Positions 3,052 through 58,750 of a stretch of DNA of 64,000 bases are shown in pieces. The notes beneath the pieces were generated by a model, which saw only the letters and a program-made list of their open reading frames with translations, did no database searches and was not told where the DNA came from. Origin of the DNA: Myxococcota bacterium. GTDB taxonomy: Bacteria > Myxococcota_A > SURF-8. The stretch is from assembly GCA_965140415.1 (NCBI GenBank), contig OZ223209.1, forward strand, positions 3,328,001 to 3,392,000. The letters are read 5' to 3'. Numbering within the stretch: position 1 is the stretch's first letter; every line of letters begins with the position of its first letter. Position numbers and translations under genes: made by a program.

Positions 3052-3057
3052 AACGGA

Positions 3058-5733: not shown

Positions 5734-5802
5734 CAGCGGAATTTTAACGAGGATCGTATTCCAAAGCCGCGACAGATTCCGATATTACCCGCTTTGCTAT
5801 TG

Positions 5803-10608: not shown

Positions 10609-10610
10609 CG

Positions 10611-18301: not shown

Positions 18302-18649
18302 TCAGTGGTTGCGCGTGATCTCCTGAATCTGGGAGAGCGGTTTGGGAGTGAAATGAATGTCGCGCTCGATGGCCTGCAGGCCGGGGATGCGCTGACCGTT
18401 GATGCGGGCTTCTAAAGATTCGAGTTCCTTCAGGCTGAAGTAACCGAGTTCACCGCAACCAGGAAGCACTTCAACCCAGCCAAAGCACGTATCACCGCCG
18501 TCGTGGTCGAACTCGGTCAGATACCAGACACCCTGACCATACGGATGGAAAAACTTGATGTGCGCGATGGCCTCCATGCCTTTGCCGTCCTGGGCGTACA
18601 AAGGCGGGATCGTCTTGCGAACGGACTGGGGAAGTAGCTTCTGTTTCAT
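18302..18649 (-). CDS. DUF2958-like mobile-element protein
   Basis: PPLYAQD, KFFHP, WYLTE.D, FGWV, ELGYFSL.EL, IERD.HF; AGGAGG RBS. Confidence 0.8.
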   Translation of the reverse strand: MKQKLLPQSVRKTIPPLYAQDGKGMEAIAHIKFFHPYGQGVWYLTEFDHDGGDTCFGWVEVLPGCGELGYFSLKELESLEARINGQRIPGLQAIERDIHFTPKPLSQIQEITRNH

Positions 18650-18973
18650 GGGTTTACCTCCTTGTTTTTGGGAAAATGGGCGCACTTGCGCGGGACATCC
18701 GGGGGATGATTGGACAGGTGGCTGAAATGGTTGGGAAATTCAGGTTAGAATGGGTTGTCTGTCACTTCTCTTATGTCATTTTCCAGGTAAGATTTGCCAA
18801 ACAATCAATTTCCGATTTTCATTGTAAAGTCAGTCAGATAGAGTATGCTAAGAGTAGGATGCAATCGATAGTTTCGCTGTAGCTTGAGCTTTTGTTTACG
18901 GGTCGTAAATAATAGCAGTCGGCTACGTTGGCCAGGAGCGTTTAGCACCGCTCCGCAAAGGACAGGTGCGCAA

Positions 18974-21748
18974 ATGGCCAGGACAAAGAGGACGGACAGG
19001 AAAAGTGTAAAGACGAAAAAGCCGAAAGATGCTTCCACAGCCAATACGAAGATAGAACGATCTTCTAAAACAGTCTCCGTTGACATCCCCAAGGCTAAAC
19101 CTGAAAGCTCGGGTAAGAAAGCCCCCAAAACGACCAATCCAAAAGCGTCCGCCCTTCGCACTAAAGAAAGCAATAGCATCCACAACGATTCCCGCTCCTT
19201 CCCCATCGTCGGCATTGGCGCATCTGCCGGAGGATTGGAGGCTCTGGAGCAGTTTTTAGGCGGCGTGCCGAAGGATTGCTGGATGGCCTTCGTCATCGTG
19301 CAGCATCTGGATCCCGACCACAAGGGCATCATGCCCGAACTCCTGCAGCGCATCACGAAAATGAAGGTGCGCCAGGTCAAGGACCGCATGCCCGTCGAGC
19401 CGGATTGCGTGTACGTCATCCCTCCCAACCGGAACATGTCGATCCTGCACGGCGTACTGTACTTGCTTGAGCCCACCGCCCGGCGTGGACTGCGCCTGCC
19501 GATCGATTTCTTTCTGCGCTCGCTGGCCGACGACCAGCAGGACAACAGCATCGGGGTGATCCTTTCCGGCATGGGCTCGGACGGCACACTTGGCTTGCGG
19601 GCCATCAAGGAAAAGGCCGGGCTGGCGCTTGCGCAGGAGCCGGGATCGGCTAAGTTCGACGGCATGCCGCACAGCGCGATAGAAGCCGGACTGGCCGATA
19701 TTGTCGCGCCAGCCAACGAACTACCAGAAAAGATCATCGCCTATCTGAAACACGCACCATTGGTGAAAACCGGAGCGGCGACGGTCGTGGACGACAAGAC
19801 CCAGAGCTCGCTGGACAAGGTCGTGATCCTGCTGCGGTCGCGGACAGGCAACGATTTCTCGCATTACAAAAAAAGCACGCTGTACCGGCGCATCGAGCGG
19901 CGCATGGGTATTCACCAGATAATCAAAATCAACATGTATGTCCGCTATCTTCAAGAAAACCCGAATGAACTGGATCTGCTGTTCAAGGAACTGCTGATCG
20001 GCGTGACGAACTTCTTCCGCGATGCGGATGTCTGGGAGAAGCTGAAAACGGAGATCATCCCAGCGCTGTTGAAGAACCGGCGTACCGGACAGGCGCTCCG
20101 GGCCTGGGCGCCCGGCTGCTCGACGGGCGAGGAAGCCTACTCGCTGGCCATCGTGTTCAAGGAGGCGCTGGAAACGCTCAAGGTTAAAAACGGCTTTTCC
20201 TTGCAGGTTTTCGCCACCGACCTGGACCCGGACGCCATCGACAAGGCCCGGGCGGGCGCTTTTCCAGTTAACATCACTGCCGACGTCTCGCCGGAGCGGC
20301 TGGACCGCTTTTTCACGAAAGAAGAAGGTCGGTATCGGGTAAGCAAAGAGATACGCGAAATGGTGATCTTCGCCCCGCAGAACGTGATCATGGATCCTCC
20401 ATTTACCAAACTTGATATCCTCACCTGCCGCAACCTGCTGATTTATCTGAGCGCCGAGCTACAGAAAAAGCTGTTGCCACTGTTTCATTACAGCCTGAAT
20501 CCCGGCGGCGTACTGCTGCTTGGGAGTGCGGAGACCATCGGAAACTTCACGGATCGGTTTGCGCCGCTGGATAGCAGGCTGAAGTTGTATCAACGTCGGG
20601 AAAGCGCGCTGTCCGTCACGCCCGTTGAATTCCCATCCGCCTTTGTCGCTATGCCGAAAACTGCAACGGAGAAAGTCACTATGGGAACCCCCCCTGCCAA
20701 TCTAGAGTCCCTGGCCGAACAACTCATCCTGCAACGCTATTCCCCGGCGGCCGTGTTGGTGAACGCGCAGGGCGACATTCTGTACATCAGCACCCGGACG
20801 GGAAAATACCTGGAACCGCCGGTGGGCAAGGCCAATCTGAACATCTTCGCCATGGCGCGTGAAGGATTGCGCCACGAATTGTCCGGCGCTTTCAGCAAAG
20901 CACTCCGGCAAAAAGCCGACGTCATGATCCGAAACCTGAAAGTGGGAACCAACGGCGGAACGCAGGTCGTAGATCTGACCATTCAGCCGCTTTCGTCGCC
21001 GGAGGCGTTGAACGGGATGGCGTTGATTGTGTTCTCCGATGTCGCATCGCTTCCGCAGCAGAAAAGGTCAGGGCGCGCCAAATCCAAGCCGGTCGATGCC
21101 TCGCGGGTTGCGGAACTGGAGGAAGAGGCGCAACGGCTGCGCGAGGAGTTGCACAGCACGCGCGAGGAGATGCAGAGCTCGCACGAAGAATTGAAATCGG
21201 CCAACGAGGAGTTGCAATCGACGAATGAGGAATTGCAGTCCACCAACGAAGAATTGACCACCTCCAAAGAAGAGATGCAGTCGCTCAATGAAGAGTTGCA
21301 GACGGTCAACGCCGAATTGCAATCGAAGCTGGACGACCTTTCGCGGGCCAACAACGACATGACCAACCTGCTCAACAGCACGGAAATCGCCACAGTATTT
21401 TTGGACGGCAAACTGAATGTACGGCGCTTCACCGAACCGGCGACCAAAATCATCAAGCTGATTCCGGGCGATGTGGGGCGTCCGTTGAGTGATCTTGTCA
21501 CCGACCTGAACTACACGGATTTGTCGGACGATGCTCACGATGTGTTACGGACCCTGGTGTTTTCGGAAAAACAGGTCGCCACCAGCGATGGGCGCTGGTT
21601 TACGGTGCGCATCATGCCGTACCGCACGACGGATAACGTCATCGACGGGCTGGTCATCACTTTCCTTGATATCAGCGCGGCAAAAGAACTTGAGACCAGA
21701 CTGCGGGAGAATTCCTCAGCAGGAGCGGCGAAGGGGTCCAAACCATGA
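18974..21748 (+). CDS. CheB methylesterase/CheR methyltransferase/PAS fusion
   Basis: GIGASAGG, VQHLDP, LSGMGSDG, IGVTNFFRD, GCSTGEEAYS, CRNLLIY, EELQS heptads, C-terminal PAS. Confidence 0.93.
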   Translation: MARTKRTDRKSVKTKKPKDASTANTKIERSSKTVSVDIPKAKPESSGKKAPKTTNPKASALRTKESNSIHNDSRSFPIVGIGASAGGLEALEQFLGGVPKDCWMAFVIVQHLDPDHKGIMPELLQRITKMKVRQVKDRMPVEPDCVYVIPPNRNMSILHGVLYLLEPTARRGLRLPIDFFLRSLADDQQDNSIGVILSGMGSDGTLGLRAIKEKAGLALAQEPGSAKFDGMPHSAIEAGLADIVAPANELPEKIIAYLKHAPLVKTGAATVVDDKTQSSLDKVVILLRSRTGNDFSHYKKSTLYRRIERRMGIHQIIKINMYVRYLQENPNELDLLFKELLIGVTNFFRDADVWEKLKTEIIPALLKNRRTGQALRAWAPGCSTGEEAYSLAIVFKEALETLKVKNGFSLQVFATDLDPDAIDKARAGAFPVNITADVSPERLDRFFTKEEGRYRVSKEIREMVIFAPQNVIMDPPFTKLDILTCRNLLIYLSAELQKKLLPLFHYSLNPGGVLLLGSAETIGNFTDRFAPLDSRLKLYQRRESALSVTPVEFPSAFVAMPKTATEKVTMGTPPANLESLAEQLILQRYSPAAVLVNAQGDILYISTRTGKYLEPPVGKANLNIFAMAREGLRHELSGAFSKALRQKADVMIRNLKVGTNGGTQVVDLTIQPLSSPEALNGMALIVFSDVASLPQQKRSGRAKSKPVDASRVAELEEEAQRLREELHSTREEMQSSHEELKSANEELQSTNEELQSTNEELTTSKEEMQSLNEELQTVNAELQSKLDDLSRANNDMTNLLNSTEIATVFLDGKLNVRRFTEPATKIIKLIPGDVGRPLSDLVTDLNYTDLSDDAHDVLRTLVFSEKQVATSDGRWFTVRIMPYRTTDNVIDGLVITFLDISAAKELETRLRENSSAGAAKGSKP

Positions 21749-23478
21749 CCAATAAGAAAAAAACAATATTGGACCCAGTCGAGCTTCGCCGCCGGGCAGA
21801 AGACAAACTAAAAGAAAAGACAAGCGCCTCGACCCCATCGGAGGAAGCGGATGTCCGCAAGCTCCTCCATGAAATGCAAGTCCATCAGATTGAACTGGAG
21901 TTGCAGAACGAGGAGCTTCGGGCGGCGCAACAGGAACTGGAAGCAACCCGCGACCGATATGCCGATCTCTACGATTTTGCGCCGGTGGGTTATTGCACCC
22001 TCGATGAAAAGGGCATCATCCTGGAAGCCAACCTGACCGCCGCCACCTTGCTCGGCGTGGAGCGAGGCAAGCTGATCAAGCAACCGATCACGCGTTTCAT
22101 CCTCAAAGCCGACCAGAATATGTATTATCATCACAGGCAGCAGCTATTCGATACCGGCGAACCACAGTCCTGCGAACTCCGGATGTTGAAACAGGATGGG
22201 ACGGAGTTCTGGGGAAATCTGTCGGGAAGCATCAGCCTCGACGCAGATGAGTCTCCCGTATATCGCATATCGATAAACGACATCACCGAACGTAAACGGA
22301 TTGACCAGCAGATCCACTATCTCAAGAAAGCCGAAAGTCTGAAACGCATGGCGGGCGCCATCGCCCACCGTTACAATAATTTGATGACCGCAGTGATGGG
22401 GAATCTTGAGCTGACTCTGGATAATTTATCGAAGGATTCCAACCTTCGTGAACAACTGACGGAAGCCATGGGTGCGGCCCGAAGTGCATCCGATCTGGGC
22501 GGTACGATGTTGGCGTACCTGGGCCAGACGGTGGCTCTGCGTCTACCGCTGGACCTTTGCGACATCTGCCATCAGGAGCTTCCCTCGGTTAAGACCGCTT
22601 TGCCGGAAAACGTGGCATTGAAGACCGATCTACCCACCATTGGGCCGTCGATTATGGCAAACTCATCCCAGATTCGACAAATCCTTCACAACCTGATCGT
22701 CAATGCATGGGAATCGCTGGAAGGTCAGCCGGGCGAGATATTCCTCGTCGTCAAAACCGTTCGCCCGACTGACATACCTGTTATCAACCGACTGCCGATC
22801 GATTTCCTGATTGAAGACGCTGATTACGCCTGCCTGGAGATTGCGGACACCGGATGCGGGATACCGGAAAAGGTATACGAAAACATCTTTGATCCTTTCT
22901 TTACGACCAAATTTGCCGGTCGTGGACTGGGTCTGGCCGTTGCACTCAGCGCCATCAGGGTTCATGGCGGCTGCATCACTTCGACAAGCACAGAAAAGCG
23001 CGGGAGCGTTTTCCGTGTGTTTCTGCCGATGACGATCGAGCCGGTCCTTCGCCCCGAGGAGGACTCCTTGCGGAAAGCGACGGCCTTGAGCGATGGAGGA
23101 ACCGTGTTGTTCATTGACGACCAGCCAGCGGCTCGACGTATCGGTTCCATCATGCTCAAGCGTCTCGGCTTCAAGGCTATTGAAGCTGAAGACGGCATCC
23201 AGGCCATTGAACTCTTCAGGGAGTGTCAGGACGAAATCCGTTGTGTATTGTCCGATCTGACCATGCCCCGGATGAACGGTTGGGAGACATTGGAGGCGTT
23301 ACGCCGAATAGCACCCAACATCCCGGTCATTCTGACCAGTGGGTATGACCAAACCCATGTGCTGAAAGGAATGCATCCCGAAATGCCGCAAGCATTCCTG
23401 CATAAGCCGTATCTAGCGGCTGATCTGAAAATCGCGCTGGTCAAAGCGTTGTCTTTGAATAACCTGCCTGAGAAATAG
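21745..23478 (+). CDS. PAS hybrid sensor histidine kinase/receiver
   Basis: [11 protein letters not shown]-box, [30 protein letters not shown] receiver; ATGA overlap with cheBR. Confidence 0.92.
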
Positions 23479-40901: not shown

Positions 40902-40988
40902 AGAATTCGACTGTCAAGTACTGTTGTACCTCCTTTCCCATAACGAACAGTAAAAAAAAGGAAGAGGCGGTCCTCTTCCAGTTATTTG

Positions 40989-41843
40989 CTATCTGGATTG
41001 ATAATTAGCCGCTTTATCAACATACAGATATTCCCCCAGCACCTGCAGCACCGACCACGGATCGATCACCCGGACATCGCCACCGAGAATACCGTCCAGG
41101 ATGACCCAGAACTCGTCCAGGTCGCCCTGCCAGTCCTCGACGGCGTCAAGCAATTCCGCCGCTTGGTTGGGGTTCAGGCCGACCAATTGCAGTTCGGTGA
41201 AGATATCATCGTTGTCATCGGGCGTTGCGTTGCTGGTGTGTTCGGTGAATCGGCGATCCAGTCCAAGTTCAAGTTCCTCATCCGGCCAGACCAGTCCCCA
41301 GGGCGCGGCGGGTGCGTGGACCTTGTCGCGCAGCTCTTTTTCCAGCGCCTCGTCACGTTCCACGCTGGCCAGGAAGCCCACCTTGATCTGATCGACCGTG
41401 ATGCGCCAGGGATGGTACAGGTCCAGCCGGGCGCGGAAATGTCCGGCCTTGTTCGTGACGATGCTGACCAGCCAGTCGTCGTTACTCATCTGCTCGATGG
41501 TGTCGGCATCTTCCGAGGACCAGAAGCAGTTCATGTCGGCATGGCTGTGCGCCCAGCAGCGCAGGTCGGACACGTCGTATCCGACCTTGACCAGTTCCGT
41601 CATCAGCGCGCCCATGCTCTCGCGGTCAGGGCTGGTGTGGGAATCCGTGCAGGTCTGCTCCGGCAGGAAGAAGGTTTTCACGACGATGGCTCCGCTGTCT
41701 TTGTCAACTTCTGTCACACCGAAGCAGGAAAATTCTCCCCGCGCCGCCTGCGTCCAGACACGCAATTGCCGCTCCGCCTCATCCGACAACAACACCTCCG
41801 GAATCCGGTTCGTCAGCTTCCGCTTCGTCTCCGTCGGTTCCAT
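40989..41843 (-). CDS. JAB/MPN (Mov34-like) metalloprotease; start uncertain, overlaps the E2 gene end
   Basis: GEFSCFG (catalytic E candidate) and WAHSHADMNCFWSSED = HxH-x7-S-x2-D. Confidence 0.85.
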   Translation of the reverse strand: MEPTETKRKLTNRIPEVLLSDEAERQLRVWTQAARGEFSCFGVTEVDKDSGAIVVKTFFLPEQTCTDSHTSPDRESMGALMTELVKVGYDVSDLRCWAHSHADMNCFWSSEDADTIEQMSNDDWLVSIVTNKAGHFRARLDLYHPWRITVDQIKVGFLASVERDEALEKELRDKVHAPAAPWGLVWPDEELELGLDRRFTEHTSNATPDDNDDIFTELQLVGLNPNQAAELLDAVEDWQGDLDEFWVILDGILGGDVRVIDPWSVLQVLGEYLYVDKAANYQSR

Positions 41844-43311
41844 CGTCCTGGTCTTCTTCATCTTCATCTTCATCTTCGTCGGCCCAGGCGCTGCACTCGG
41901 ATCGGTGTGGGCAGTCCGGGCATTCGGGTTCGTTTCGTTCACGGCAATCCTCCTCATTTTCGGGGTGTAAGGCGCACCATTCGCGGTGGCACTGTAAGCA
42001 TTCGTAAGGTCCGCCATCGTTGCGGCAATCGTCGCGCACATCGTCCAGGAAGGGGCAGCGCGCATCGCCGCAGTCCAGGCAGTCCCGCGGAGAGCTGCCA
42101 TCGAAACAACGGCTGTAACGCTCATCCCAATACGGGCAGTCCCGGTCGTTGCAGTCCGTGCAAGTGGCTTCGCCGCCCTCGTAGCACTCCTCGTACTCGT
42201 CGCGCTCGCTGTCGAACCACTGCGTGTACGGGTCCAGCGGGTTGTAGGACATCAGGAATTCGTCGAGCAGCAAGAGCAGCATGCCCCATTCTCTTTGCGC
42301 CATGAGCTTGTTGACATCGTCGCCGATGTTGCCCAGGCACGGGCTGCCTTCCGTGCTGATGTGCGGGTGGAAGTAGTTCGATCGCCACTCGTTGTTGCCC
42401 GCCGGCTCGAACCGGATCAGCTCCTTGCCGGTCAACTCGATACGGCAGCGGATGTCGCCCAGTTCCGAGGTTTCACCACTGTCCGGGTCTTCAATCTGCA
42501 CGTCGGTATGCACGGCCACCAGCTCCGTGTCGCTGATGCTGATGGACTGGAAGCGCTCGCCCACGAGGGACTGCAACTGCTGGCTGATGCGCTTAACCGC
42601 ACTCACCGTGCGTCCGCATTTCTCGTTGACGGCCAGACGGAGCAGACGTTCCTCTTCTCGCTGGCGCCCCAGCTTGGCCACGAGCTGATGGTACTGGCGG
42701 TTCAGTTCGAGCAGGTTGGCTTCGTTGTCGCGGATATCCTGCTGGGTGCGCTCCAGACTCTGGCGCGAGAGGGCACTGTAGAAGCTGCCGAAGCGGCGCG
42801 TGGTCTCGACCGGATTGGGAGTCCGCATGGCATTCCGGCAAGCCCAGTCGAAGCCGTCCTTGAAGATGCTCGTCAGCAGGGCGCGCTTGGCTCCGAAGGT
42901 GACTTCCGTACCGTTCGAAAAGCGAATGCTGCCCTCATCGATGCGGGCGATGTAGAGCGTGGATCCCTCCAGCGTCCAGGCGCCGTGCGTATACGGCACC
43001 TGGAGATCGGGGCCCTGCGCCATCGGTAGCCAGCGTTTGCGGTCTTCGTTCAAGAGCTTTCTTTTCCTGCCGGTCACCGCCGCGTTGACCGGCGCCATGT
43101 AGAAGCGGTAGTCGCCATCCAGAGCCGTGACCTCGTATTCGCGGCTGGTGATGATCGTTACCACCGGTCCGAGCGTGTACGCCGCATCGCTTCTGTCGTC
43201 CTCCTTCACCTGGACGATGGGGCGTTGGTCGGCGGGGAAATCGAGCAACCACTCCTGCATGAGCGCCCGAAGGATCTCCGCAATGCGGGTGGAGTCGTTG
43301 AGATGTTCCAT
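41779..43311 (-). CDS. E2/UBC-like protein with coiled coil and C-terminal Cys-repeat tail
   Basis: YFHPHISTEGSPCLGN matches the E2 HPN/H...G..CL signature; GGAGG RBS. Confidence 0.78.
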   Translation of the reverse strand: MEHLNDSTRIAEILRALMQEWLLDFPADQRPIVQVKEDDRSDAAYTLGPVVTIITSREYEVTALDGDYRFYMAPVNAAVTGRKRKLLNEDRKRWLPMAQGPDLQVPYTHGAWTLEGSTLYIARIDEGSIRFSNGTEVTFGAKRALLTSIFKDGFDWACRNAMRTPNPVETTRRFGSFYSALSRQSLERTQQDIRDNEANLLELNRQYHQLVAKLGRQREEERLLRLAVNEKCGRTVSAVKRISQQLQSLVGERFQSISISDTELVAVHTDVQIEDPDSGETSELGDIRCRIELTGKELIRFEPAGNNEWRSNYFHPHISTEGSPCLGNIGDDVNKLMAQREWGMLLLLLDEFLMSYNPLDPYTQWFDSERDEYEECYEGGEATCTDCNDRDCPYWDERYSRCFDGSSPRDCLDCGDARCPFLDDVRDDCRNDGGPYECLQCHREWCALHPENEEDCRERNEPECPDCPHRSECSAWADEDEDEDEEDQDDGTDGDEAEADEPDSGGVVVG

Positions 43312-43324
43312 GTAACCTCCTGAC

Positions 43325-43358
43325 AAAAAGTGAACGGCGGAAGGTTTCCCCTCCGCCG
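43325..43358 (-). terminator. Hairpin plus T-tract between ubl and E2 genes
   Basis: CGGCGGA/TCCGCCG stem followed by TTCACTTTTT on the minus strand. Confidence 0.5.
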
Positions 43359-43382
43359 CTCTGGTCCGCTCCTCCTTTCCGG

Positions 43383-43652
43383 CTACTGGTGGGCTACCGC
43401 ACCGCCGTCGACCTTGGGCGTCAAGGCGACGATGTCGCCATCATCGGGCCGCTCGTGGAGCTGGGTGTGGACACCGTTCAGGGTCGCCATGTAGCCTTCG
43501 CTCTGAAAGCCCGCCGCGAGGAGGGCGTCGGCGATTGTGCTGCCTGCGGGAATGGTGGTAGCTTTCTGCCTGCCGATCGAAACGACGGTGACGCGGATGC
43601 CGGGATTGCGGTTCTGGGACTGCTGGTCGTGGTTCTGGTTCTGGTCGTTCAT
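43383..43652 (-). CDS. Ubiquitin-like (beta-grasp, ThiS/MoaD-like) protein ending GG-AVAHQ
   Basis: 89 aa; RVTVVSIG...GSTIADAL...LNG...DGDIVALTPKVDGG; GGAGG RBS. Confidence 0.85.
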   Translation of the reverse strand: MNDQNQNHDQQSQNRNPGIRVTVVSIGRQKATTIPAGSTIADALLAAGFQSEGYMATLNGVHTQLHERPDDGDIVALTPKVDGGAVAHQ

Positions 43653-43757
43653 GGGGTTCCTCCATTGCATGGGATGATGGGCGCTGTGGCCCGGACACAA
43701 AAACGCCGCCTCGTGGGCGGCTGCTGTCGGTTACGTTGCTGTCGTGGGTTGGATCTG

Positions 43758-44516
43758 CTACTCGGCGCTGTCGCCGTTCTCCTCGTCCCCATTGGGCTGA
43801 ATGACGCTGCGCAGGTTCTCGAAGATAGTCTTGAACTGCCGGATTTCCTGCTCGTTGCAGTCTTCTTCCTTTTCGAGTTGCAGGACGGCATACGTGCCGC
43901 TCGGCATGGTGAGCGAGAGCCGGGTCTTGGCGGTGAACAGCGGTAGGTCGGCGCGATGACCGTCGGGGAGTTGGAGCTTGCCGAGGAAGTGACGCGCCAG
44001 ATAGCGCTGCACGGGTCTGCGCGACGTGGCTTTGGCGCGGATGATGAAGGGGTTCTCATCGTCCAGATCGAGGCCGAGCAGCGTATATACAATATCGCAA
44101 TCCGGAGCGCTGGCTTGACCGTTATTGCGCCCCCACAATCGATGCGGACAGTTGGCGCAGTCCACGACCTCGCCGTCGGTGCGGACGCCTTCCACGCCGT
44201 CATCCGAACGGCAGTGCTCGGTCATACCGCTGGTTTCCGAGTAGGTTGCCCATCGGCGGGACTTTTTGATGTGGAGCAGGACGCAACTGATTTCATCCTT
44301 CGCCTCGCCTGTCAGCGTGTTGACGAACACATTCTTCGGCACCCAGGAACCGTCCGGTAGGCGGCGTTTGGTGTTGTAGGCGAAGGAAGGTAGCGGCCGA
44401 TCTTCATTGTCCAGATGGGACAGAGCCTGAAGACCGGCCAGCTCGGTGATGAGGGATTGGGGGATGGGGAGATTCGGCGCGGTCGGCGCCGGCGGGGAAT
44501 GGGTATTCTGGGTCAT
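43758..44516 (-). CDS. Phage-type Zn-binding protein with acidic tail (possible ssDNA-binding/recombination protein)
   Basis: CRSDDG..G...CANCP...W...PDC motif; acidic C-terminus; GAGGAG RBS. Confidence 0.5.
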   Translation of the reverse strand: MTQNTHSPPAPTAPNLPIPQSLITELAGLQALSHLDNEDRPLPSFAYNTKRRLPDGSWVPKNVFVNTLTGEAKDEISCVLLHIKKSRRWATYSETSGMTEHCRSDDGVEGVRTDGEVVDCANCPHRLWGRNNGQASAPDCDIVYTLLGLDLDDENPFIIRAKATSRRPVQRYLARHFLGKLQLPDGHRADLPLFTAKTRLSLTMPSGTYAVLQLEKEEDCNEQEIRQFKTIFENLRSVIQPNGDEENGDSAE

Positions 44517-44591
44517 GGCGTTTCTCCTCTGTGAAATTGGGATAGGAAGTAGGAATGGCATTGCGCGACGCCTTCGGGAGCGTGATCGTCA

Positions 44592-46233: not shown

Positions 46234-46668
46234 TTATTCGAACAGGTTCCGCAGGCTACCCTTAGATGGCCGGTCCCAGTTGGCGAACCAGAGCGGTTTG
46301 AGCGGCTCGCCGTTCTCATCCCTGGAGGTATTAGTGGCCAGCGGCATCATCTTCATGTACGACCCTTCGCGCACTAGATCATATCCATTTCTGCGGCACT
46401 CTTCCCGCGCAACCTGAGTGACCAAGCTTCCCCGTCTGTCGTCCAGTAAGGCGCAGTAGCCGCCCTGATTCCAGCGTTTCACCCATTCGCGGACCGACGC
46501 GGTCGAGCAGCCGAGTTTTGCGGCGACCGACTGCTGGGATTCGCCTTCCATCAGCGCCAGAACAGCGCGCAAGCGAAGTTGGAGCCGGTCATCTGATTCC
46601 CGGTCGATAAGGGACTGGAGTTGTGCAGGGCTGAACAACGTCTGATCTGGAGGTTTCAGCGGCGGCAT
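46234..46668 (-). CDS. Transposase-type HTH protein
   Basis: RLRAVLALMEGESQQSVAAKLGCSTASVREWVKRWNQGG..AL.D (IS630/IS481-type HTH). Confidence 0.75.
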   Translation of the reverse strand: MPPLKPPDQTLFSPAQLQSLIDRESDDRLQLRLRAVLALMEGESQQSVAAKLGCSTASVREWVKRWNQGGYCALLDDRRGSLVTQVAREECRRNGYDLVREGSYMKMMPLATNTSRDENGEPLKPLWFANWDRPSKGSLRNLFE

Positions 46669-47180
46669 TACTCGATTCCCAGCGATTTGTTCAGCATCGC
46701 GATCGACCTCTCCAGGTCATTCAACAACTCCTTTCTCGCCGCCCGGTCAAACGGGGTGTTGAACCTCGGAACCACGCGCGGTCGCTTGTCTCCGATGAGG
46801 ATATCGCTCCCCTGGCCACGGAAGTATGCGCGCAGTGGGGGGAACTCCAGATGTCTGCCCTCGGAGTATTCCAACTGGGAAATCCAGGTCAACCCACATT
46901 CGTTCCAGAGTTTCGTCCAGGTGATAAGGGTCTCCAGGGAAATGTGATGCCGCGAGCAGATCGACTCCCAAGGTTTGCCGGCCATCAGGCTGCGAATGAC
47001 CTGCAAGCGGTGAATCAGGTTTTCATCATCCTTGGACTCAATGAGGTCATCGAGATGGGTAATGTCCTCAGTGCATACGCTTTCCCGCAGAAAGACTGGC
47101 ATGGCATCTATAGGCAGGCCCATTTCGTGCAGTATGGCCTGACGCTGCTCGTCCGGGTGCGGTTTTTGATTAGAACTCAT
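46668..47180 (-). CDS. Transposase-type HTH protein
   Basis: HRLQVIRSLMAGKPWESICSRHHISLETLITWTKLWNECGL. Confidence 0.65.
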   Translation of the reverse strand: MSSNQKPHPDEQRQAILHEMGLPIDAMPVFLRESVCTEDITHLDDLIESKDDENLIHRLQVIRSLMAGKPWESICSRHHISLETLITWTKLWNECGLTWISQLEYSEGRHLEFPPLRAYFRGQGSDILIGDKRPRVVPRFNTPFDRAARKELLNDLERSIAMLNKSLGIE

Positions 47181-47445
47181 TCATGTCCTCCATTTCTCCG
47201 CGAGCCTTCCGGATCCCGTTCATTACGCTGTCCGGGCCGTATCTACGGTCCAAAATATCCAATTCCTGCCCACGCCGATACAACCGGAGCCAGCGATACC
47301 CCGTGCTCCTGGCGACGCCAACGACTTTCGCTGCGGTGTGGACGGGTACGTCACGGACCAGCACCGCTGTCAAAAACATGGATTTTTGGTGCTGCTTGTA
47401 CTGAGGCTCGAAAACAGGCGGTCCTTGTATCCCGGTCACTTCCAT
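47170..47445 (-). CDS. Small transposase-type HTH protein
   Basis: PVHTAAKVVGVARSTGYRWLRLYRRG; overlaps the next gene start. Confidence 0.6.
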   Translation of the reverse strand: MEVTGIQGPPVFEPQYKQHQKSMFLTAVLVRDVPVHTAAKVVGVARSTGYRWLRLYRRGQELDILDRRYGPDSVMNGIRKARGEMEDMNEF

Positions 47446-47656
47446 CGCTAATTTCCCTCGTGTATCTCGGATTTCCAACGGGCAGGTTACCCAATGAAAA
47501 CGGACAACACTCCAGTTTCGCTTGTCCGAAACGTCTGCATTCACAGTACATCCATCGTGATTAATAGTCAATAATACTAGGAATGAAGAGATACAGTTTC
47601 TTCTGGACATAGTGAACCGCTGTACGTACAATCCCTTATCGGTTACGGGAGGTGAC

Positions 47657-48664
47657 ATGCCGAGACGAAAGCTCGACCCTAAACAACGACTGCGCCTGCG
47701 CGCCCTCAAGCGCGCGGAAAAGATCGGCATGACCGCTGCTGCGAAGGAGTCCGGCATTAGCCGCGTCATGCTTCACCGGTGGCGCGATCGGTTCGAGGCC
47801 GAGGGTATCGAGGGATTGCGCGACCGCAGCCATCGTCCACATCATCACCCCCATACAACACCGGCGGAGGTGGCTGAGCAGGTAGTCGAAGTCGCTCTCC
47901 TGCATCCCACGCATGGCTGCCGCCGGTTGGTCGGCGCGCTTTCCGAACGGGGTATCTCAATTAGCGAACCGACCGTTCAAGGGATCTTGGTTGACCGGGA
48001 ACTTGGTCTGGCTGAACAACGTGTGGGAATGGTCGAGCGGCGCATCCTCAGCGGCGCGTGCAAGCCATCCACCGAACTTCTCGCCGAGGTGGAGGCGGCG
48101 GATCCCGCGTTTCGTGAGCGGACCCGTCCCATACCACGACCCGGCAGTCTCTTGATCACCGATATTATCCGCGGCGGAATCATCGAGGAGGGGAGACGGC
48201 TCCGCGTAGTGGTGGTCGTCGACGCCGGGAGTGCTTACGCCTGGGCCATGCCGTTCACGGACATCGAGGAACTGCCACACATCGAGATTTTGCGCGGCCA
48301 GGTTATGCCCGACCTAGAGGAATGGGGGGTTAAACCCTTTAGTATTCTCACCCCGAATCGCGCGTCATGGGCCGAGGATAGTCCGGAAGGACGGGCATTC
48401 AGGATGTGGTGCCGCGAGGTTTTCCACCTACGGCAGAAGTTCCAGCCGGAGGGAGTGCGGAATGGAAACGTCGAGGGTTACCATCGGGTTTTCCAATCTT
48501 GGTTCCGCCGGGAGGGACTGCACAGGGCGCCGATATTACAGGTCGAGCAGGATATCACCGGGTGGCTGGAAGAGCGGAACCGGGAAACCCGGTGGATGTA
48601 TCCAAGTTTCGGTCGATCAGCGTATAACATGATGGCGACAACCGAACACCGACGTCCCGTATAA
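47657..48664 (+). mobile_element. IS481-like transposase with degenerate DDE triad
   Basis: AAKESGISR..LHRWRDRFEAEGIEGLRDRS.RP...P; LITD, VVDAGS.YAWA; ILTPN in place of LTDNG; NGNVE.YHR. Confidence 0.7.
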
Positions 48665-48731: not shown

Positions 48732-51700
48732 CTATTTCTCCGCCCAACTTGTTCCGATACTACATTCCACCAATCCTTTGACACTCGCATCAGGGAAGAT
48801 ATCCAGCATTCCCTCCATCATCACTTCGGCGAGGATCTGCTGCACCTCCTCGACATCGCCGGCGTCCGCCTCGACAATCAGCTCATCGTGCACCGCACCA
48901 ACCAATGAGGCATTCACTCCGGATTCATCCAACTTGGCTGTCAACCGCGCCATGGCGGCGTACAACACCTCTGCCGCACCGCCCTGGACCTGATAATTAA
49001 AGACCCGGAATGGGGTCAACTCCCGCGCACCGAACACAATCTCCCGACCGGCTGGAGTGCGTACCGAGTTCGATTGTTTGGCCTGCCGGAGCGCTCTCTG
49101 ATGCCAGGAAGCAAAGCCAGGATAGGACTTGAACCAAGCCTCCCGGTGCTGCCTGGCCTTTTTAATACTCATCCGAACGCCGTAGGTCTGTTCTGCATAT
49201 TTCTGAAGCCCCTTAGCCGACATCCCGAACAGAAGGCCGAAATTGATCGCCTTGGCTAACTGGCGTTCCAATTTCGTCACCTCCGAAGGGTCCTTATCCA
49301 GCAACATCGCCGCCGTCATCGTGTGGACATCCACACCGTGTATGTAAGCCTTCAGCAGAATGCTTTCAGGGGCAATATGGGCTGCGCTTCGCAACTCCAT
49401 CTGTCCGTAGTCGGCAATGACCAGTTGGCGGCCTTCATGGGCAACAAACAACCTGCGGAACGCTGCTTCTCTCGGCATGTTTTGCAGATTCGGCTTCGAG
49501 CAGCTCATGCGCCCGGTGATGGCCCCGGCCAGCCTGAAATCCGCATGGATCCTCCCCGTCGTGGGGTGCAGGTGTTCGATCAGACCCTTGCCGTAGGTAG
49601 AACGCTGCTTGGCCACGTCCCGATAGGGAAGGAGAATGTCGCTCACGACGGCCCGTGCGTCCTTGGAAAGCAACGGCAACCCCGCCTGCAGCTCGGCAGC
49701 TCCCAGTTTCAGCCCGCCCCCCGGAGTCGTCGGCCACTGCGCCAAAGCCTTTTTCCCGCTCTCTTTCAGCTTCGAAGCCACCCACTCTCCTAGTTGTTTG
49801 GTGCTGTTCGGGTTCCGCCCACCCAGGGCCTTTTGCAGCTTGGTCCGAAGCTGAGCCTCTCGTTCTCCCACATCAGCCATCAAGACGGCGTGCGCGTCTC
49901 TTTCAAAGGCCATGCCGGTCAGGCACATCTGTACCACAGCCGGTTGTGCGCCGATGACAAGATCGTAGGCGCGCCGGCTGTCCCGGCTTTCGACTTCTGC
50001 CTCAATTCGCTCGAACAAACGTCGGGTGACCTCGGCGTCCTTGGCGGCGTAGGCCAGTTGTGTGTCCGACATCTCTCCACTCCAGTCGGATTTCTGAAGG
50101 GTCTTGTCCACGGTCTCACCCAGCCAGTGCCCCACGGCATTTTCCAACGAGGCATGCTCGCCGGTGACCAGGTGGTGACCGAGCATGGTGCAGTCCAGGT
50201 TGACGGAGATGCCCGCAGCCTTCAGCATTCCCATGTCGAACACGGCGTTGTGCGCGATGCCGCGGATCTGTCTCAACGGCTCCCGTACGGCTCCGAGCCC
50301 ACCGATCTTGTCCACGTCCAGCACAACCACCGGCCCGTCCTCCGGCGCCAACTGGACGAGCCGAACTCGATCCAGGATGGGATCAAGCCCCGTGGTCTCC
50401 ACGTCCAGGCCGACCCGCTGACCCGAATCCGCCAGTTCGCCGATGACCCGACGCGCCTCGTCTGCGTCCACGATCAGCGTGTAATCGATGCCGGACGGTG
50501 CGTTCGTAGACTCGATCCGGTCGGAGACCGCTCCCATACTCTCCGTCGAACGGGGCGTGGTCGGTGGGACTGATTCCGGATCGTAATCGATCATCTGCCC
50601 CGATTCATCCCCTACCAGCATCTCCATCTGCGGCAAGGCCTCTCTTAACGCCTGGCCGAGATCTGCGATCTCAACGGTTCCGTCTTGCGAGTGATCACCG
50701 CAATTACGATTGAAGCCATGCACCTCCACCTCCTCCAGCCTGTGCCAGGCCTTATGGGCGTAAAGAGCGACGTCGCCGGTCATACCACGATGCCGCACAA
50801 GGGAGAGCCGCACCCGACCGCCCGCTCCTGGACCGAACCGGGGGTACTGCTGCTCCAGTTGCTGGATATGCCGAAAACAGGCCTGTGCCCGTGTTTCGTC
50901 ACCACGCATCCGGGCCTGATGACCGACAAACTCCCAGGGGTCAATAGCCACCTGCGTTGTGTTCTCGCCTTTGCCTTCCTTCACGTAGACCACCTGTGTT
51001 TGCATGGTGAGGAGGCCGTCCGCGGCATGCGCGATCGCCAGGCTGTCGCGCGCTGAATTTACATCGATTTCGCCCTCCTTGTTTGCCTGCCGTTCTGCCT
51101 CCTTTGTCGTAGATGACAGCGCAATCACCACCGCACCCGTTTTACGCGCAAGATCTTTACAGGCCACGGCGAGATTAGTGACTCGGGTTGTCGTGTCACC
51201 GTATCGGTCGAGCTGCTCGACCCCAGTGCGCGCAAGTTGCAAATAATCGATTACGACGATCGGCGTTTTATCGGGATGCTGCCGACGAACACGGCGAACC
51301 CATGCTCCGGCATCTGCCAACGTCGTCTCCAGACCCGCCTCCCAGATTTCGAGGAACTGACCCTCGTTCTGGAGATATTCAGTCAGGCCTTTGGTGAAAA
51401 CCGCTACCTCCTCGCGGTCCAGCAGCTGCATCTCGACCCGGCGGGAGTTCATTCCAAGCTTGCGCGCCATGGCATAGATCATCATCTGGTGCATGGCCAT
51501 TTCGTAGCCAACGTACAAGGCGGGAGTGCCATTCGCCGCCGCATGATCGAGAGTCTGCGCTGCGAGTGTCGTTTTCAATCCCTTGGGCGGCGCAACGATG
51601 ACGTACAGCCGCCCTCCATGCCAACCGCCATGGAGTAGGCCGTTCAATCCCTCGAACGGCGTGGGGATAACGGCGTTGGTGTCCCGCGCAAACAGCTCGA

Positions 51701-53279
51701 CGATCCGGGCCTGCTGCTGGGCGAGTGGACCGTGTTGCCCTGTCTCGATCAGGCAACCCTCCAGGTTATGCTGGAGCTGGTGGACCACCGCAGCCGCTGA
51801 CGGGCTGCTATCACCGGAGTTCGCCTCCGATAGAACCTGATGCACACGATACCGCCGCTCGAATTCCAAGGCCCGCTGGTATGCCGACATTCCTGATTCC
51901 GGGCTGTAGGGATGGTCTCGCAATTGCGCCATGAATCGCTCCACGTCCTCTACCAGCGCGTCCCGGTGTTGAGCAATACTCCGCTCCGCGATATCACAGT
52001 CGAGTTCCCGATAAACCGCCGCTGATGTCAATCCGCCATCGGTCATGGCCCGGGCCATCAGAGCTGCCGGGCTATAGGTCACGGTGATTTCGCCGTTCGA
52101 CTCCAGGGAGTGATCCGGCCAGACGTGCTCCAGTCTGTGAACCGGAAGGCCATCTTCCATGGCGGACCGGAGCAGGTCGAGGGCGACGGGAGGTTCGATC
52201 TGCCGCAACCCGGATTCAGACACGGACGGCGGAGGCCATTCGTCCGTCCGCGCCGGGCAGTCCTGACAACTGAAATATTCCCGCCAGCCCTTCATTTTTC
52301 GCGGGTAATCACAACGGAAATCGTCGCTGTGGTTCGAGAAGAAATTTTTGATCTTCCCATCGAACGTCTTGATGCTCGGGTGATCCTCAGAGGCCTCGGC
52401 CAGTTTGGTCGCCAGGTACCGGGATGCCTTCTTATCCAGTCCCCTCGAGTGCGCATATTTCGCAAGATTTAGGTTGGCCTTATCGTAGTCGTACTCATGG
52501 GACGATCCGTGTTCCAACATGGCGTCGATGCAGGGCGGGTGCTCGTACTCCGGTAGTTTCGACCAGTCTGGTTTGACAGAAGGCCCGGACTGCTTCGGCT
52601 CCCGGAACCCAGTCGCCTGCGCTTCTTTCCGGATCCGGTCGTGGGCCTGCCGGAACGGCGCCACCGTCACCACCTCGGTCCGCGCCAGCAGCGAGATCTG
52701 CTCATCCAGGTCCGGTGGATCGTCGAAGCCCGTGAGGGGCGCGCTGTCGGAGTACCCAGCCGGGTCCAGATACGCCGACCACAACCCCGATCCGCGATGC
52801 TTGCAGACCGGCAGCTTCATAACCGCCTGCGCCGCCTTGGTCGGGACCGCCGTATCGGGCCGGACATCGATGTGCCCTGCGCCGGGACAAGCCACATTGA
52901 GCAGATGTTTAAGAAAGGCCTGCAATTGCCCCGCCGGCACCGGTTCCGCAAGGCAGAAATCAAGGCCGTAGCCCTTGCGCCCGCTGTTGCAAACCAGAGG
53001 TGCGGGAAGGCCCAGTTCCTCTATCTTCCGCAGAACTGCCTGGACCAGAGGCCATTGATCCGCACCGCCGTCGAAATCGAGACGACCCACCCGACAGGTG
53101 CTCTCCGGTCCAACGATGTTCAAGGCCGCCGTCTGCTCACCGCGAAAATGGGCGCGCAGGTCGTTCTCGGCGATCGGTTCATCGCGGGGAATGTAGGCCT
53201 CGCCGTCCTCGCTCTGGAAATGGACTGGCTGGCTGGGCACCAGGTATAGCCGGTCTACGTGTTCAAGCAGTTCTTTCAT
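48732..53279 (-). CDS. Fusion of AEP-type primase, DnaB-like helicase, 3'-5' exonuclease and family A DNA polymerase (1515 aa)
   Basis: LDFD, SGRKGY, KLP; PPC...C...C..CP; APPKGLKTT, VIDYLQ; LDVETTGL, HNAVFD, YAAKDA; TGRMS..PNLQN, ADYGQMELR, R..AKAINFG, VHDEL; AAGGAGG RBS. Confidence 0.88.
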   Translation of the reverse strand: MKELLEHVDRLYLVPSQPVHFQSEDGEAYIPRDEPIAENDLRAHFRGEQTAALNIVGPESTCRVGRLDFDGGADQWPLVQAVLRKIEELGLPAPLVCNSGRKGYGLDFCLAEPVPAGQLQAFLKHLLNVACPGAGHIDVRPDTAVPTKAAQAVMKLPVCKHRGSGLWSAYLDPAGYSDSAPLTGFDDPPDLDEQISLLARTEVVTVAPFRQAHDRIRKEAQATGFREPKQSGPSVKPDWSKLPEYEHPPCIDAMLEHGSSHEYDYDKANLNLAKYAHSRGLDKKASRYLATKLAEASEDHPSIKTFDGKIKNFFSNHSDDFRCDYPRKMKGWREYFSCQDCPARTDEWPPPSVSESGLRQIEPPVALDLLRSAMEDGLPVHRLEHVWPDHSLESNGEITVTYSPAALMARAMTDGGLTSAAVYRELDCDIAERSIAQHRDALVEDVERFMAQLRDHPYSPESGMSAYQRALEFERRYRVHQVLSEANSGDSSPSAAAVVHQLQHNLEGCLIETGQHGPLAQQQARIVELFARDTNAVIPTPFEGLNGLLHGGWHGGRLYVIVAPPKGLKTTLAAQTLDHAAANGTPALYVGYEMAMHQMMIYAMARKLGMNSRRVEMQLLDREEVAVFTKGLTEYLQNEGQFLEIWEAGLETTLADAGAWVRRVRRQHPDKTPIVVIDYLQLARTGVEQLDRYGDTTTRVTNLAVACKDLARKTGAVVIALSSTTKEAERQANKEGEIDVNSARDSLAIAHAADGLLTMQTQVVYVKEGKGENTTQVAIDPWEFVGHQARMRGDETRAQACFRHIQQLEQQYPRFGPGAGGRVRLSLVRHRGMTGDVALYAHKAWHRLEEVEVHGFNRNCGDHSQDGTVEIADLGQALREALPQMEMLVGDESGQMIDYDPESVPPTTPRSTESMGAVSDRIESTNAPSGIDYTLIVDADEARRVIGELADSGQRVGLDVETTGLDPILDRVRLVQLAPEDGPVVVLDVDKIGGLGAVREPLRQIRGIAHNAVFDMGMLKAAGISVNLDCTMLGHHLVTGEHASLENAVGHWLGETVDKTLQKSDWSGEMSDTQLAYAAKDAEVTRRLFERIEAEVESRDSRRAYDLVIGAQPAVVQMCLTGMAFERDAHAVLMADVGEREAQLRTKLQKALGGRNPNSTKQLGEWVASKLKESGKKALAQWPTTPGGGLKLGAAELQAGLPLLSKDARAVVSDILLPYRDVAKQRSTYGKGLIEHLHPTTGRIHADFRLAGAITGRMSCSKPNLQNMPREAAFRRLFVAHEGRQLVIADYGQMELRSAAHIAPESILLKAYIHGVDVHTMTAAMLLDKDPSEVTKLERQLAKAINFGLLFGMSAKGLQKYAEQTYGVRMSIKKARQHREAWFKSYPGFASWHQRALRQAKQSNSVRTPAGREIVFGARELTPFRVFNYQVQGGAAEVLYAAMARLTAKLDESGVNASLVGAVHDELIVEADAGDVEEVQQILAEVMMEGMLDIFPDASVKGLVECSIGTSWAEK

Positions 53280-53490
53280 CGTCTCCTCCTTCACGAGAGA
53301 GTAGGCCCGCAGCAACGCCACCACGGCGCGGCGCGGTGAATAGGCCTATTCTCCCGCGAGGGGGAGGCCGCCCGCCACGGCCCCAGACGGGAGCGGCGGA
53401 CTCACCCCCTCTTGGGGGTTCTTTAAGATACTTGGGCGCTCGTGGCCGGACAGATGTGACCTGATTTCAGTTGGTTACAGGATCGGGCGC

Positions 53491-58631: not shown

Positions 58632-58668
58632 AAAAACAGCCACTCACGAAAACTCGTAAGTGGCTGTT
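58632..58668 (-). terminator. Intrinsic terminator after tRNA-Pro
   Basis: AACAGCCACT...AGTGGCTGTT inverted repeat with a T-run on the minus strand. Confidence 0.65.
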
Positions 58669-58673
58669 ATTAC

Positions 58674-58750
58674 TGGTCGGGGCGACTGGATTTGAACCAG
58701 CGACCACCTGAACCCCATTCAGGTACGCTACCAGACTGCGCTACGCCCCG
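58674..58750 (-). tRNA. tRNA-Pro(GGG)
   Basis: CGGGGCG acceptor stem, CCTGA-ATGGGGT-TCAGG anticodon arm, GGTTCAAATCC T-arm, CCA end. Confidence 0.95.

Follow-up and report, generated by a model that had tools for sequence, protein, structure and literature searches.

The window analyzed here, a 64,000-nucleotide stretch of the genome of a Myxococcota bacterium (contig OZ223209.1, positions 3,328,001 to 3,392,000 of the forward strand), carries what we consider likely to be a four-enzyme conjugation cassette for a ubiquitin-like protein (Ubl), consisting of a pro-Ubl, a conjugating enzyme (E2), a JAMM protease, and a minimal activating enzyme (E1). In this reading the cassette forms part of the backbone of integrative elements and phage-like contigs. 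Its family is large and goes unrecognized by annotation libraries, and in the window its operon has been split by cargo genes. A preliminary description of the window had recognized Ubl, E2-like, JAB, and ThiF/E1 genes on its minus strand, and open reading frame (ORF) calls and motifs place all four as stated:

43383 to 43652, minus strand: pro-Ubl, 89 aa, a single beta-grasp domain (ORF 43383 to 43700; probable start at 43652, MNDQ...).
41779 to 43326, minus strand: E2, 515 aa from a TTG start or 510 aa from the ATG at 43311, with an HPH-x7-C motif.
40989 to 41843, minus strand: JAB/JAMM metalloprotease of 284 aa, counted from M95, whose C-terminal region is helical; AGGA lies 4 to 7 nt upstream of the start.
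17583 to 18290, minus strand: minimal E1, a ThiF-type adenylation domain of 235 aa that scores 57.0 bits with Pfam ThiF (cut-off 28.1).

The gene set goes beyond chance, because its catalytic residues are invariant in relatives (14 of 14 sequences for the E2, 25 of 25 for the JAMM site, and 15 of 15 for G83 of the Ubl) and because the four genes recur together in many genomes. Loci from these other genomes are identified below by L numbers.

The E2, a large multidomain protein that the preliminary description could not fit to the architectures of Bil/Bub, CBASS Cap2/Cap3, or PRTRC, had no match in Pfam (even at E ≤ 10), NCBIfam, PADLOC, or PHROG. Its parts are as follows:

About 42922 to 43311, minus strand: N-terminal beta-rich domain (AF2 model).
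About 42553 to 42897, minus strand: long coiled-coil helices (AF2 model).
42202 to 42621, minus strand: UBC-like domain, residues 236 to 373 (AF2 model and structural comparison).
42337 to 42369, minus strand: active-site motif H320-P321-H322-x7-C330(-L-G), with the C330 codon at 42337 to 42339.
41893 to 42186, minus strand: Cys-rich tail, followed by an acidic end (alignment).

The AlphaFold (AF2) model of this protein, built from a 12-row alignment, reached a predicted local distance difference test score (pLDDT) of 68.9 and shows a beta-rich N terminus, long helices, a strand meander, the loop that bears HPH...C, and further helices. Compared with known structures in VIA, residues 236 to 373 of the model aligned with UBE2S at a Z score of 7.6 and a root mean square deviation (rmsd) of 3.8 Å over 113 of 148 residues, and all 50 of the 50 rows listed were E2 entries. 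Foldseek, run against PDB with the same model, returned top rows that were almost all E2 enzymes (best E 0.043), and E2 enzymes also ranked first (Z 7.0) in a wide search independent of Foldseek. A profile made from the UBC domain only (15 sequences) and compared with the sequences in PDB placed UBE2L3 first, the nine best matches being UBE2L3 or engineered variants of it. In the alignment produced by this domain profile, HPH falls on HPN and the family Cys falls on the Cys of the HPN...C motif of UbcH7, which we take to be the catalytic Cys of UbcH7.

H320, P321, H322, and C330 are fixed in all 14 aligned E2 sequences; across 160 proteins of the E2 family that we examined, HPH...C occurs in 152 and HPN...C in one. 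A word-indexed search recovered 12 E2 relatives, and in all 12 both HPH...C-LGNIG and 16 later Cys residues are invariant. The 16 tail Cys form four repeats of C-x7/8-C-x2-C-x4/5-C, and the tail, which is poorly modeled (pLDDT 45 to 55), presumably binds metal.

Several points weigh against the assignment of the E2. No Foldseek match of the model to PDB reached E ≤ 0.001, which makes the structural match only moderate; in the wide search the E2 enzymes were tied with generic coiled-coil rows; VIA Z scores of 7.0 to 7.6 fall in the range for which the tool itself warns of a possibly common arrangement; the E value of the UBE2L3 profile match, 0.028, is likewise only moderate; and the third residue of HPH is His where eukaryotic E2s use Asn. 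A full-length E2 profile found nothing significant among the sequences of solved structures (best E 0.55), and in the whole-model searches the matches were taken up by the UBC domain and by the long helices, with nothing returned for the N-terminal domain or the Cys-rich tail. Each line of evidence is moderate and all of them agree, and we accept a predicted UBC fold for residues 236 to 373, with an active site of the classical type that has His in place of Asn. The preliminary description had held that its reading would fall if this protein lacked a UBC fold or a conserved Cys; the VIA match to E2s, the UBE2L3 profile match, and the invariance of C330 uphold it on both counts.

The JAB protease had no match in Pfam (even at E ≤ 10), NCBIfam, PADLOC, or PHROG, and its orthologue at L010, in a metagenome-assembled genome (MAG) of the Gammaproteobacteria, scores 20.8 bits with Pfam Prok-JAB, below the cut-off of 25. 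Its AF2 model (pLDDT 76.2) has Rpn11 and CSN5 as the top Foldseek matches (E 3.2e-9, probability 1.00), and superposition on 5u4p_B gave a TM score of 0.71 and an rmsd of 3.8 Å over 158 columns. The JAMM site reads E37, H99-S-H101-x7-S109-x2-D112, and these five residues are fixed in all 25 sequences. We set the start at M95 (41843), because similarity to orthologues begins there and AGGA lies just upstream. The full JAB ORF runs from 40989 to 42125, and a gene beginning at 42125 was rejected, its first 94 codons being the E2 tail read out of frame. As a separate observation, the JAB frame is open over these 94 codons, within the Cys-rich and acidic tail of the E2 (41779 to 42125, minus strand), and is likewise open in relatives at 43 to 48% identity; we read this as a probable by-product of GA-rich acidic codons.

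The pro-Ubl ends in ...TPKVDGG-AVAHQ, with the mature end G83-G84 encoded at 43401 to 43406 and the five-residue tail AVAHQ at 43386 to 43400. Pfam ThiS scored 22.1 bits, just under its cut-off of 22.5; the NCBIfam ThiS match had an E value of 4.5e-6, the ThiS equivalog reached 26.9 bits against a cut-off of 80, and PHROG gave no match. Gly-Gly followed by 0 to 10 further residues was found in all 19 Ubl relatives. G83 is the fixed residue; in the viral locus L046 the second Gly is Asn. Given these tails past Gly-Gly, a processing protease is required, a role that the JAB protein would fill. A terminator-like hairpin separates the Ubl gene from that of the E2, and a second one follows the JAB gene (both from a consensus scan):

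43332 to 43361, minus strand: terminator-like hairpin with 13 pairs and a T-run, located past the stop of the Ubl and before the start of the E2.
40960 to 40979, two-way: terminator-like hairpin just past the JAB stop, facing a convergent GGDEF gene.

The hairpin between Ubl and E2 could act as an attenuator that holds Ubl above the levels of E2 and JAB; the scan found 13 such sites in the region against 3.7 expected.

Unlike the E2 and the JAB protein, the E1 has a clear library match, to Pfam ThiF, and all 44 of its 44 homologues examined carry the same domain (PF00899). Lengths in relatives range from 207 to 257 aa. Its NCBIfam matches are all below threshold, the best being a ThiF/MoeB-type model at 48.7 bits against a cut-off of 159, and in PADLOC only a Rossmann stretch, residues ~30 to 90, matches the 'E1-E2' models. 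Among solved structures, its nearest sequence relatives are UBA5 (E 1.4e-6) and ThiF. The preliminary description had credited the E1 with a lone C-terminal Cys and with no CxxC pairs. The second part holds; the first does not, as the protein has four Cys (C52, C122, C190, and C227), of which only C190, in LPCTAR, is invariant across 18 relatives. Also fixed in these 18 sequences are G35, G37, and G40 of the GxGxxG nucleotide loop, D59, D61, D124, and T191, with P189 nearly so. C190 (codon 17721 to 17723) is a candidate catalytic Cys, and its PCT motif resembles what we take to be the P-x-C-T catalytic-Cys motif of canonical E1s.

Together these parts suggest a sequence of reactions. The JAMM protease would remove the AVAHQ tail and expose Gly-Gly. 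The E1, which is probably homodimeric, as are ThiF, MoeB, and UBA5, would adenylate the Ubl C terminus and take the Ubl onto C190; from there the Ubl would pass to C330 of the E2, whose HPH...C site parallels the eukaryotic HPN...C. With no gene for a ligase (E3), the E2 would itself pick the target through its N-terminal domain, coiled coil, and 16-Cys tail, an isopeptide bond would form, and the JAMM protease may also be able to reverse the tag. A complex prediction with two copies of the E1, mature Ubl, and the UBC domain of the E2 scored 0.27 against a mark of 0.32 and counts neither way.

The same proteins could also be read as a sulfur-carrier system, in which a ThiS-like carrier adenylated by a ThiF-like enzyme is thiocarboxylated for a cofactor, cysteine, or secondary-metabolite pathway and the JAB protein unmasks the carrier, for which CysO and Mec+ provide a precedent. 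The only library matches of the Ubl and the E1 are to the ThiS and ThiF families, and the source names of E1 homologues include 'molybdopterin/thiamine biosynthesis adenylyltransferase'. Such a role is nevertheless highly improbable, because a UBC-fold protein with an invariant Cys is always present in the cassette and because no sulfur-acceptor enzyme (rhodanese, ThiG/ThiH, MoaE, or a CysM-type family) was seen among the neighbors scanned against Pfam. Nor do those neighbors include any genes for thiamine, molybdopterin, or cysteine synthesis, in agreement with the first reading of the window. The E1 in addition lacks the CxxC zinc pairs and scores far under the cut-offs of the ThiF and MoeB equivalogs, and the genomic context is that of mobile elements. 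Protein conjugation remains the reading that we prefer.

In order of transcription on the minus strand, a gene for a 267-aa protein is followed by Ubl, E2, and JAB, and then, ~22 kb on, by DUF2958, E1, and a glycine-zipper gene. The additional genes, and the insertion that separates the two groups, are:

43758 to 44561, minus strand: 267-aa phage-like protein, encoded just upstream of the Ubl gene in the close family (phrog_23155, E 3.8e-7).
18686 to 40988, no strand: cargo insertion of 22.3 kb that splits the operon between JAB and DUF2958-E1 (Pfam scans).
18302 to 18685, minus strand: DUF2958 protein, 127 aa (Pfam DUF2958, 59.9 bits), always just upstream of the E1 in this subfamily.
17272 to 17562, minus strand: glycine-zipper protein, 96 aa, after the E1, with weak Pfam matches to glycine-zipper families.

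We conclude that the distant E1 belongs to the Ubl-E2-JAB system, because in other genomes it is contiguous with these genes. In a related genome (L006), Ubl, E2, JAB, DUF2958, E1, and a small protein lie back to back. L010 has a contiguous Ubl-E2-E2'-JAB-E1 order without DUF2958, and L046, a viral contig from IMG/VR, has the same four genes contiguous among small early-type ORFs. When distant loci were searched with hidden Markov models from our own alignments, Ubl-E2-JAB-E1 was contiguous in 12 of 15, the remaining 3 being cut by contig ends. Such loci answer the concern, raised in the preliminary description, that homologous ThiF genes might never co-occur with this Ubl and JAB. Among close genomes that hold the E2, four of five have a full-length E1, and the one without an E1 match is 86% complete. 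One of them, G030, which contains L005, carries a 41-residue E1 fragment near the cassette and, 19.5 kb downstream of the cassette, a same-strand E1 of full length. In the genome analyzed here there are three Ubl-E2-JAB triads (79 to 88% protein identity), each with DUF2958-E1 located 12 to 31 kb downstream on the same strand; these copies are kin, and independent evidence of linkage must therefore come from other genomes.

Other features of the window count against a connection between its two halves. The E1 lies 22 kb from the rest of the cassette, with a terminator-like hairpin after JAB, and a consensus scan found no sigma-70-like promoter upstream of DUF2958-E1 on the minus strand, so that co-expression of the halves is only putative. 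E1/DUF2958 pairs also outnumber the triads in this genome (five full E1 copies against three triads), and the E1 pair might therefore also act alone. The same gap, hairpin, and missing promoter-like site could be taken to mean that cargo has uncoupled the E1 from Ubl-E2-JAB and left a decaying relic with no working cascade here, and relatives do decay: in addition to the fragment at L005, the E1 of L040 is degenerate. Against this, the ORFs are all intact, the split layout is kept in all three in-genome copies, and G030 retains its distant full-length E1. Moreover, the ratios of nonsynonymous to synonymous substitution rates (dN/dS) between 3 to 5 in-genome copies are 0.06 to 0.23 for the Ubl, E2, JAB, E1, DUF2958, and 267-aa genes (0.06 to 0.11 for the E1); one comparison, with the DUF2958 copy at 2.758 Mb, was left out because of its reading frame. 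Both halves of the operon thus remain under purifying selection, which argues that the split system is maintained, and decay is an improbable account of it.

The split itself appears to be secondary. The junction between JAB and DUF2958 is free of cargo in L006 and holds ~4 kb in L004 (12324 to 16251 of that locus), and the GC content is 0.47 to 0.52 in the cargo of the window versus ~0.60 to 0.62 at Ubl-E2-JAB and the replication genes. We read the layout as an ancestral Ubl-E2-JAB-DUF2958-E1 operon, apparently split here by 22 kb of inserted cargo, with both halves in one island. Cargo also occurs at differing junctions: between JAB and DUF2958 in this window, L004, and G030, and between Ubl and E2 in L007 (8.7 kb, 1258 to 10009). 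The intergenic gaps of the cassette seem to act as cargo hot spots.

Of the neighboring genes, DUF2958 is paired with the E1 in the in-genome copies, L004, and L006, and the window protein as a query found no match in the 15 distant loci or L010. In L006 and two other in-genome copies, the glycine-zipper gene likewise follows the E1. Synteny of the 267-aa gene extends to L004, L005, L007, L008, and the two remaining in-genome copies, and the nearest ESM Atlas clusters of its product are 92 to 97% viral.

The cassette sits in an integrated element whose end can be placed in the window:

58634 to 58721, no strand: attR, a direct repeat of 88 bp, 97.7% identical over 88 bp to genome positions 3324258 to 3324345 (blastn).

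This repeat consists of the 3' 48 nt of a tRNA-Pro gene (58674 to 58750, minus strand) plus 40 nt beyond, and its partner lies 3.7 kb before the window starts, adjoined by a tyrosine integrase. The two 88-bp repeats therefore delimit an island of ~62.4 kb at tRNA-Pro (window positions 1 to 58721 plus genome positions 3324258 to 3328000), with infC beyond the tRNA gene. From the left repeat, the island encodes the tyrosine integrase, AbiEii/AbiEi, an McrBC-like pair, giant LamG/FGE-sulfatase proteins, and the E1 half of the cassette, which is directly preceded by a gene that encodes a pseudouridine-synthase domain. The 22-kb cargo follows, and then the Ubl half, helix-turn-helix and IS481-type genes, a 1530-aa fusion protein, and a D5_N primase. 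The placement of the cassette in the backbone of an integrative element beside replication genes, proposed from the first reading of the window, is borne out by the att repeats, the integrase, the primase-helicase-PolA fusion, and the D5_N primase. A second copy of the element, at 5.32 to 5.41 Mb of the same genome, is collinear over ~90 kb, and another related element was seen at ~2.73 to 2.78 Mb.

The cargo between the halves, made up of regulatory and carbohydrate genes, includes those for a CheB-CheR-PAS fusion, a hybrid histidine kinase, a LysR regulator, a phosphofructokinase, an OmpA-like protein, a B12-radical SAM enzyme, an SPFH protein, glycosyltransferases and hydrolases, and a GGDEF protein. 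The stretch from 18884 to 23478 on the plus strand encodes the CheB-CheR-PAS fusion, of 954 aa, and after it a PAS hybrid histidine kinase/response regulator. The 1530-aa protein (48732 to 53324, minus strand) joins a primase of the archaeo-eukaryotic (AEP) type, a DnaB-like helicase, a 3'-5' exonuclease, and a family-A polymerase, a replisome core in one gene, and a second copy at 5.405 Mb is 84.5% identical. Between the cassette side and this polymerase gene, four helix-turn-helix genes (HTH_23/28/29/32) occupy 46234 to 48664, one of them with an IS481-type leucine zipper. An McrC-like protein at 1003 to 3051 (minus strand) is fused to TY-Chap2, a YbjN-like and type III secretion system (T3SS) chaperone-like domain, and adjoins its 891-aa AAA_5 McrB-like partner at 3058 to 5733. 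Giant proteins of secreted appearance, bearing LamG, EGF-like, beta-propeller, and FGE-sulfatase domains, are a recurrent cargo of these elements, at 5803 to 14591 (minus strand) and in L004, L006, and L007; several of them end in a similar ...VRCVR motif.

To gauge the size of the family, we ran a full HMMER search with the E2 profile against 1.84 billion representatives of 50%-identity clusters. It returned 4165 representatives at E ≤ 0.001, 1870 at E ≤ 1e-10, and 94 at E ≤ 1e-30, and 10 of 10 distant members scanned had no Pfam domain. Most of the listed matches begin past profile position 100, and we therefore regard the coiled coil and UBC domain as the conserved core and the N terminus as variable. 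The tail also varies. Among 153 motif-bearing relatives, 83 have a tail of at least 12 Cys, 56 have none and end ~50 residues after the Cys, and 14 are intermediate. L010 offers a variant of its own (664 to 3407), where tandem E2 paralogues of 437 and 428 aa both carry HPH...C and neither has a Cys-rich tail. In a survey of the phylum, the E2 was found in 18 of 301 genomes sampled, this genome included, and often in multiple copies.

The contexts of these relatives are those of mobile DNA. The L032 cassette has relaxase-like and TrwB-like ATPase genes on one side and DnaG-like primase and SprT-like genes on the other, those of L041 and L033 lie near serine or tyrosine recombinases, and that of L031 lies near HNH and PD-(D/E)XK nucleases. 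The nearest ESM Atlas clusters of the E2 are mostly viral, and its best structural matches in BFVD are uncharacterized phage proteins of 373 to 542 aa. A tblastn search with the E2 against phage and plasmid collections gave no match; the family is nonetheless present in one IMG/VR contig. From the contexts at L031 to L033 and L041, the Atlas clusters, and the BFVD matches, we conclude that mobile elements and phages carry the cassette along, next to the genes for their own replication and transfer.

What the cassette does for its carriers is a separate matter. Given its backbone position and its presence in a viral contig, we lean toward a role in serving the element itself, through establishment, replication control, or action on host or rival-element proteins, rather than in classical host defense, and we consider the chances of this to be about even. 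This role is inferred from position only; that the recognizable defense genes, AbiE and McrBC-like, lie elsewhere in the island is weak evidence either way. The same biochemistry could instead serve as anti-phage or anti-element defense cargo, as in BilABCD, with the Ubl placed on a protein of an invading phage so as to block assembly or infectivity. Bil operons share the order Ubl-E2-DUB-E1, where DUB is a deubiquitinase (as given in 10.1101/2023.09.26.559546); the two characterized bacterial conjugation pathways, Type II CBASS (a system of antiphage signaling based on cyclic oligonucleotides) and Bil, act in antiphage immunity, and Bub is suggested by its context to do so (according to the account in PMC11601596). 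Defense systems, moreover, often ride on mobile elements, and this island has its AbiE and McrBC-like genes. The cassette, however, stands among replication and transfer genes, away from the defense genes of the island; it also occurs among early-type genes of a viral contig; and PADLOC matches nothing of it beyond the Rossmann stretch of the E1. Defense strikes us as a rather unlikely role, though it is the chief rival reading.

If the cassette does serve its element, a broader and more speculative proposal follows, which we put forward tentatively and think probably overreaches. Minimal cascades of this kind, with a 70-aa Ubl, a 210-aa E1, an E2 of the H-P-x...C type, and an Rpn11/CSN5-like JAMM protease, may be a core kit of mobile elements and phages rather than of host defense, used offensively to tag proteins of the host or of rival elements during establishment or replication, with swappable E2 N-terminal and 16-Cys modules as a built-in E3. 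Were this true, ubiquitin-type tagging by an invader, which is well documented for viruses and pathogens of eukaryotes, would have an existing counterpart in bacterial mobile elements, and the family would be a candidate close relative of the stock that gave rise to eukaryotic E2 and Rpn11.

Bacterial operons with E1, E2, JAB, and Ubl have been known from comparative genomics since 2006. The present cassette stands apart from known systems in its architecture and active-site layout: it retains the classical His-Pro ahead of the Cys, and no other E1 of the set is as small. It would offer a compact and tractable system in which to ask what uses mobile elements, rather than hosts, make of Ubl tagging and how an E2 chooses its targets without an E3, and it adds a data point on the origin of eukaryotic E2 and Rpn11/CSN5. 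It also illustrates that such operons can be split by cargo and yet be maintained; operon-based searches would miss the E1 here.

These differences can be set out system by system. Bil is similar in layout, with four separate genes in the order Ubl-E2-JAB(DUB)-E1 (10.1101/2023.09.26.559546 for the Bil order, as outlined there), Ubl residues after the conserved Gly that JAB can remove, and no E3. In Bil, too, the E2 is thought to pick the targets, according to the parts of 10.1101/2023.09.26.559546 and PMC11601596 that deal with this question. The Bil E1, in contrast, has an inactive adenylation domain in tandem with an active one (IAD-AAD) and an inserted CYS domain, whereas the E1 here is a single ThiF domain of 207 to 237 aa with its Cys in PCT. 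In the Bil E2 a conserved His comes after the Cys (CEHH in Type II), whereas here HPH precedes the Cys and no His after C330 was found among the invariant or near-invariant E2 columns. At the sequence level no match to solved structures or PADLOC models was obtained, and the cassette further differs from Bil in lying in an element backbone.

With Type II CBASS Cap2/Cap3 the cassette shares E1/E2 chemistry and a JAB protease, and systems of the Cap2/Cap3 type are often on mobile elements as well (row 6b of Table 1 in Iyer et al. 2006, PMC1779556, as tabulated there). Cap2, however, is an E2-E1 fusion whose substrate is a CD-NTase, and no Ubl is involved; here the genes are separate and a Ubl is present. 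E1 and E2 were separate in every locus examined, and no CD-NTase-type nucleotidyltransferase was found among the neighbors scanned. Bub (6E/DUF6527) has the same Ubl, E1, E2, and peptidase parts. As described in PMC11601596, it forms Tyr/Ser oxyesters without both catalytic Cys, uses Ubl-E2 or E2-E1 fusions plus JAB-E1 fusions, and has a DUF6527 serine protease; in the present family, by contrast, both Cys are invariant and the genes are unfused, and DUF6527 had no match among the window proteins scanned. PRTRC, the ParB-related, ThiF-related cassette of plasmids and integrative and conjugative elements, resembles the cassette in having a ThiF-family E1 in the backbone of a mobile element. The E1 here, however, scored only 41.7 bits with PRTRC_ThiF (NCBIfam TIGR03736; cut-off 144.75), and seven further proteins that were scanned had no match to any PRTRC model, so we regard the likeness as only an analogy. 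None of classes 6a to 6e fits either. By the account in PMC1779556 (Iyer et al. 2006), classes 6a, 6b, and 6c have fused E2-E1 proteins, and in the 6d E2s the classical His is absent while another His follows the Cys; here E1 and E2 are unfused, HPH comes before the Cys, and both Cys are invariant.

A likeness of another kind is to the eukaryotic and Caldiarchaeum-type systems, which share H-P-x...C at the same place in the UBC domain, a JAB protein nearest to Rpn11 and CSN5, and a Ubl with Gly-Gly plus a tail. The cassette departs from them in its His for Asn, in its minimal E1 without an ubiquitin-fold domain (UFD) or separate Cys domain, and in having no RING gene; its E2 bears a coiled coil and a 16-Cys tail, unlike theirs. 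According to a 2024 review (PMC11354881), His and Asn are found in the active center of certain putative bacterial E2 families, so that the HPx feature alone is not new. We found no description of this Ubl-E2-JAB-E1 family in the literature; an earlier listing is possible, for example in the supplementary operon tables of the Bil/Bub papers.

It might still be argued that the cassette is a divergent member of PRTRC, Type I or II Bil, Type II CBASS Cap2/Cap3, or Bub, with which it shares a general parts list and, through the E1, weak matches to PRTRC_ThiF, 6A-MBL cap2_3, and the PADLOC 'E1-E2' models. These matches span the nucleotide-binding stretch only and fall far short of their cut-offs (besides that of PRTRC_ThiF, 46.7 against 320), and the E2, JAB, and Ubl match none of these libraries. 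With a single-domain E1 of 235 aa rather than IAD-AAD-CYS, E1 and E2 unfused (versus Cap2), both catalytic Cys invariant (versus Bub), and a His before the Cys (versus Bil and 6d), we give the proposal almost no credence. The comparison instead supports a distinct, widespread, and so far unannotated family that, judged by sequence, lacks the defining features of Bil, CBASS, Bub, and PRTRC.

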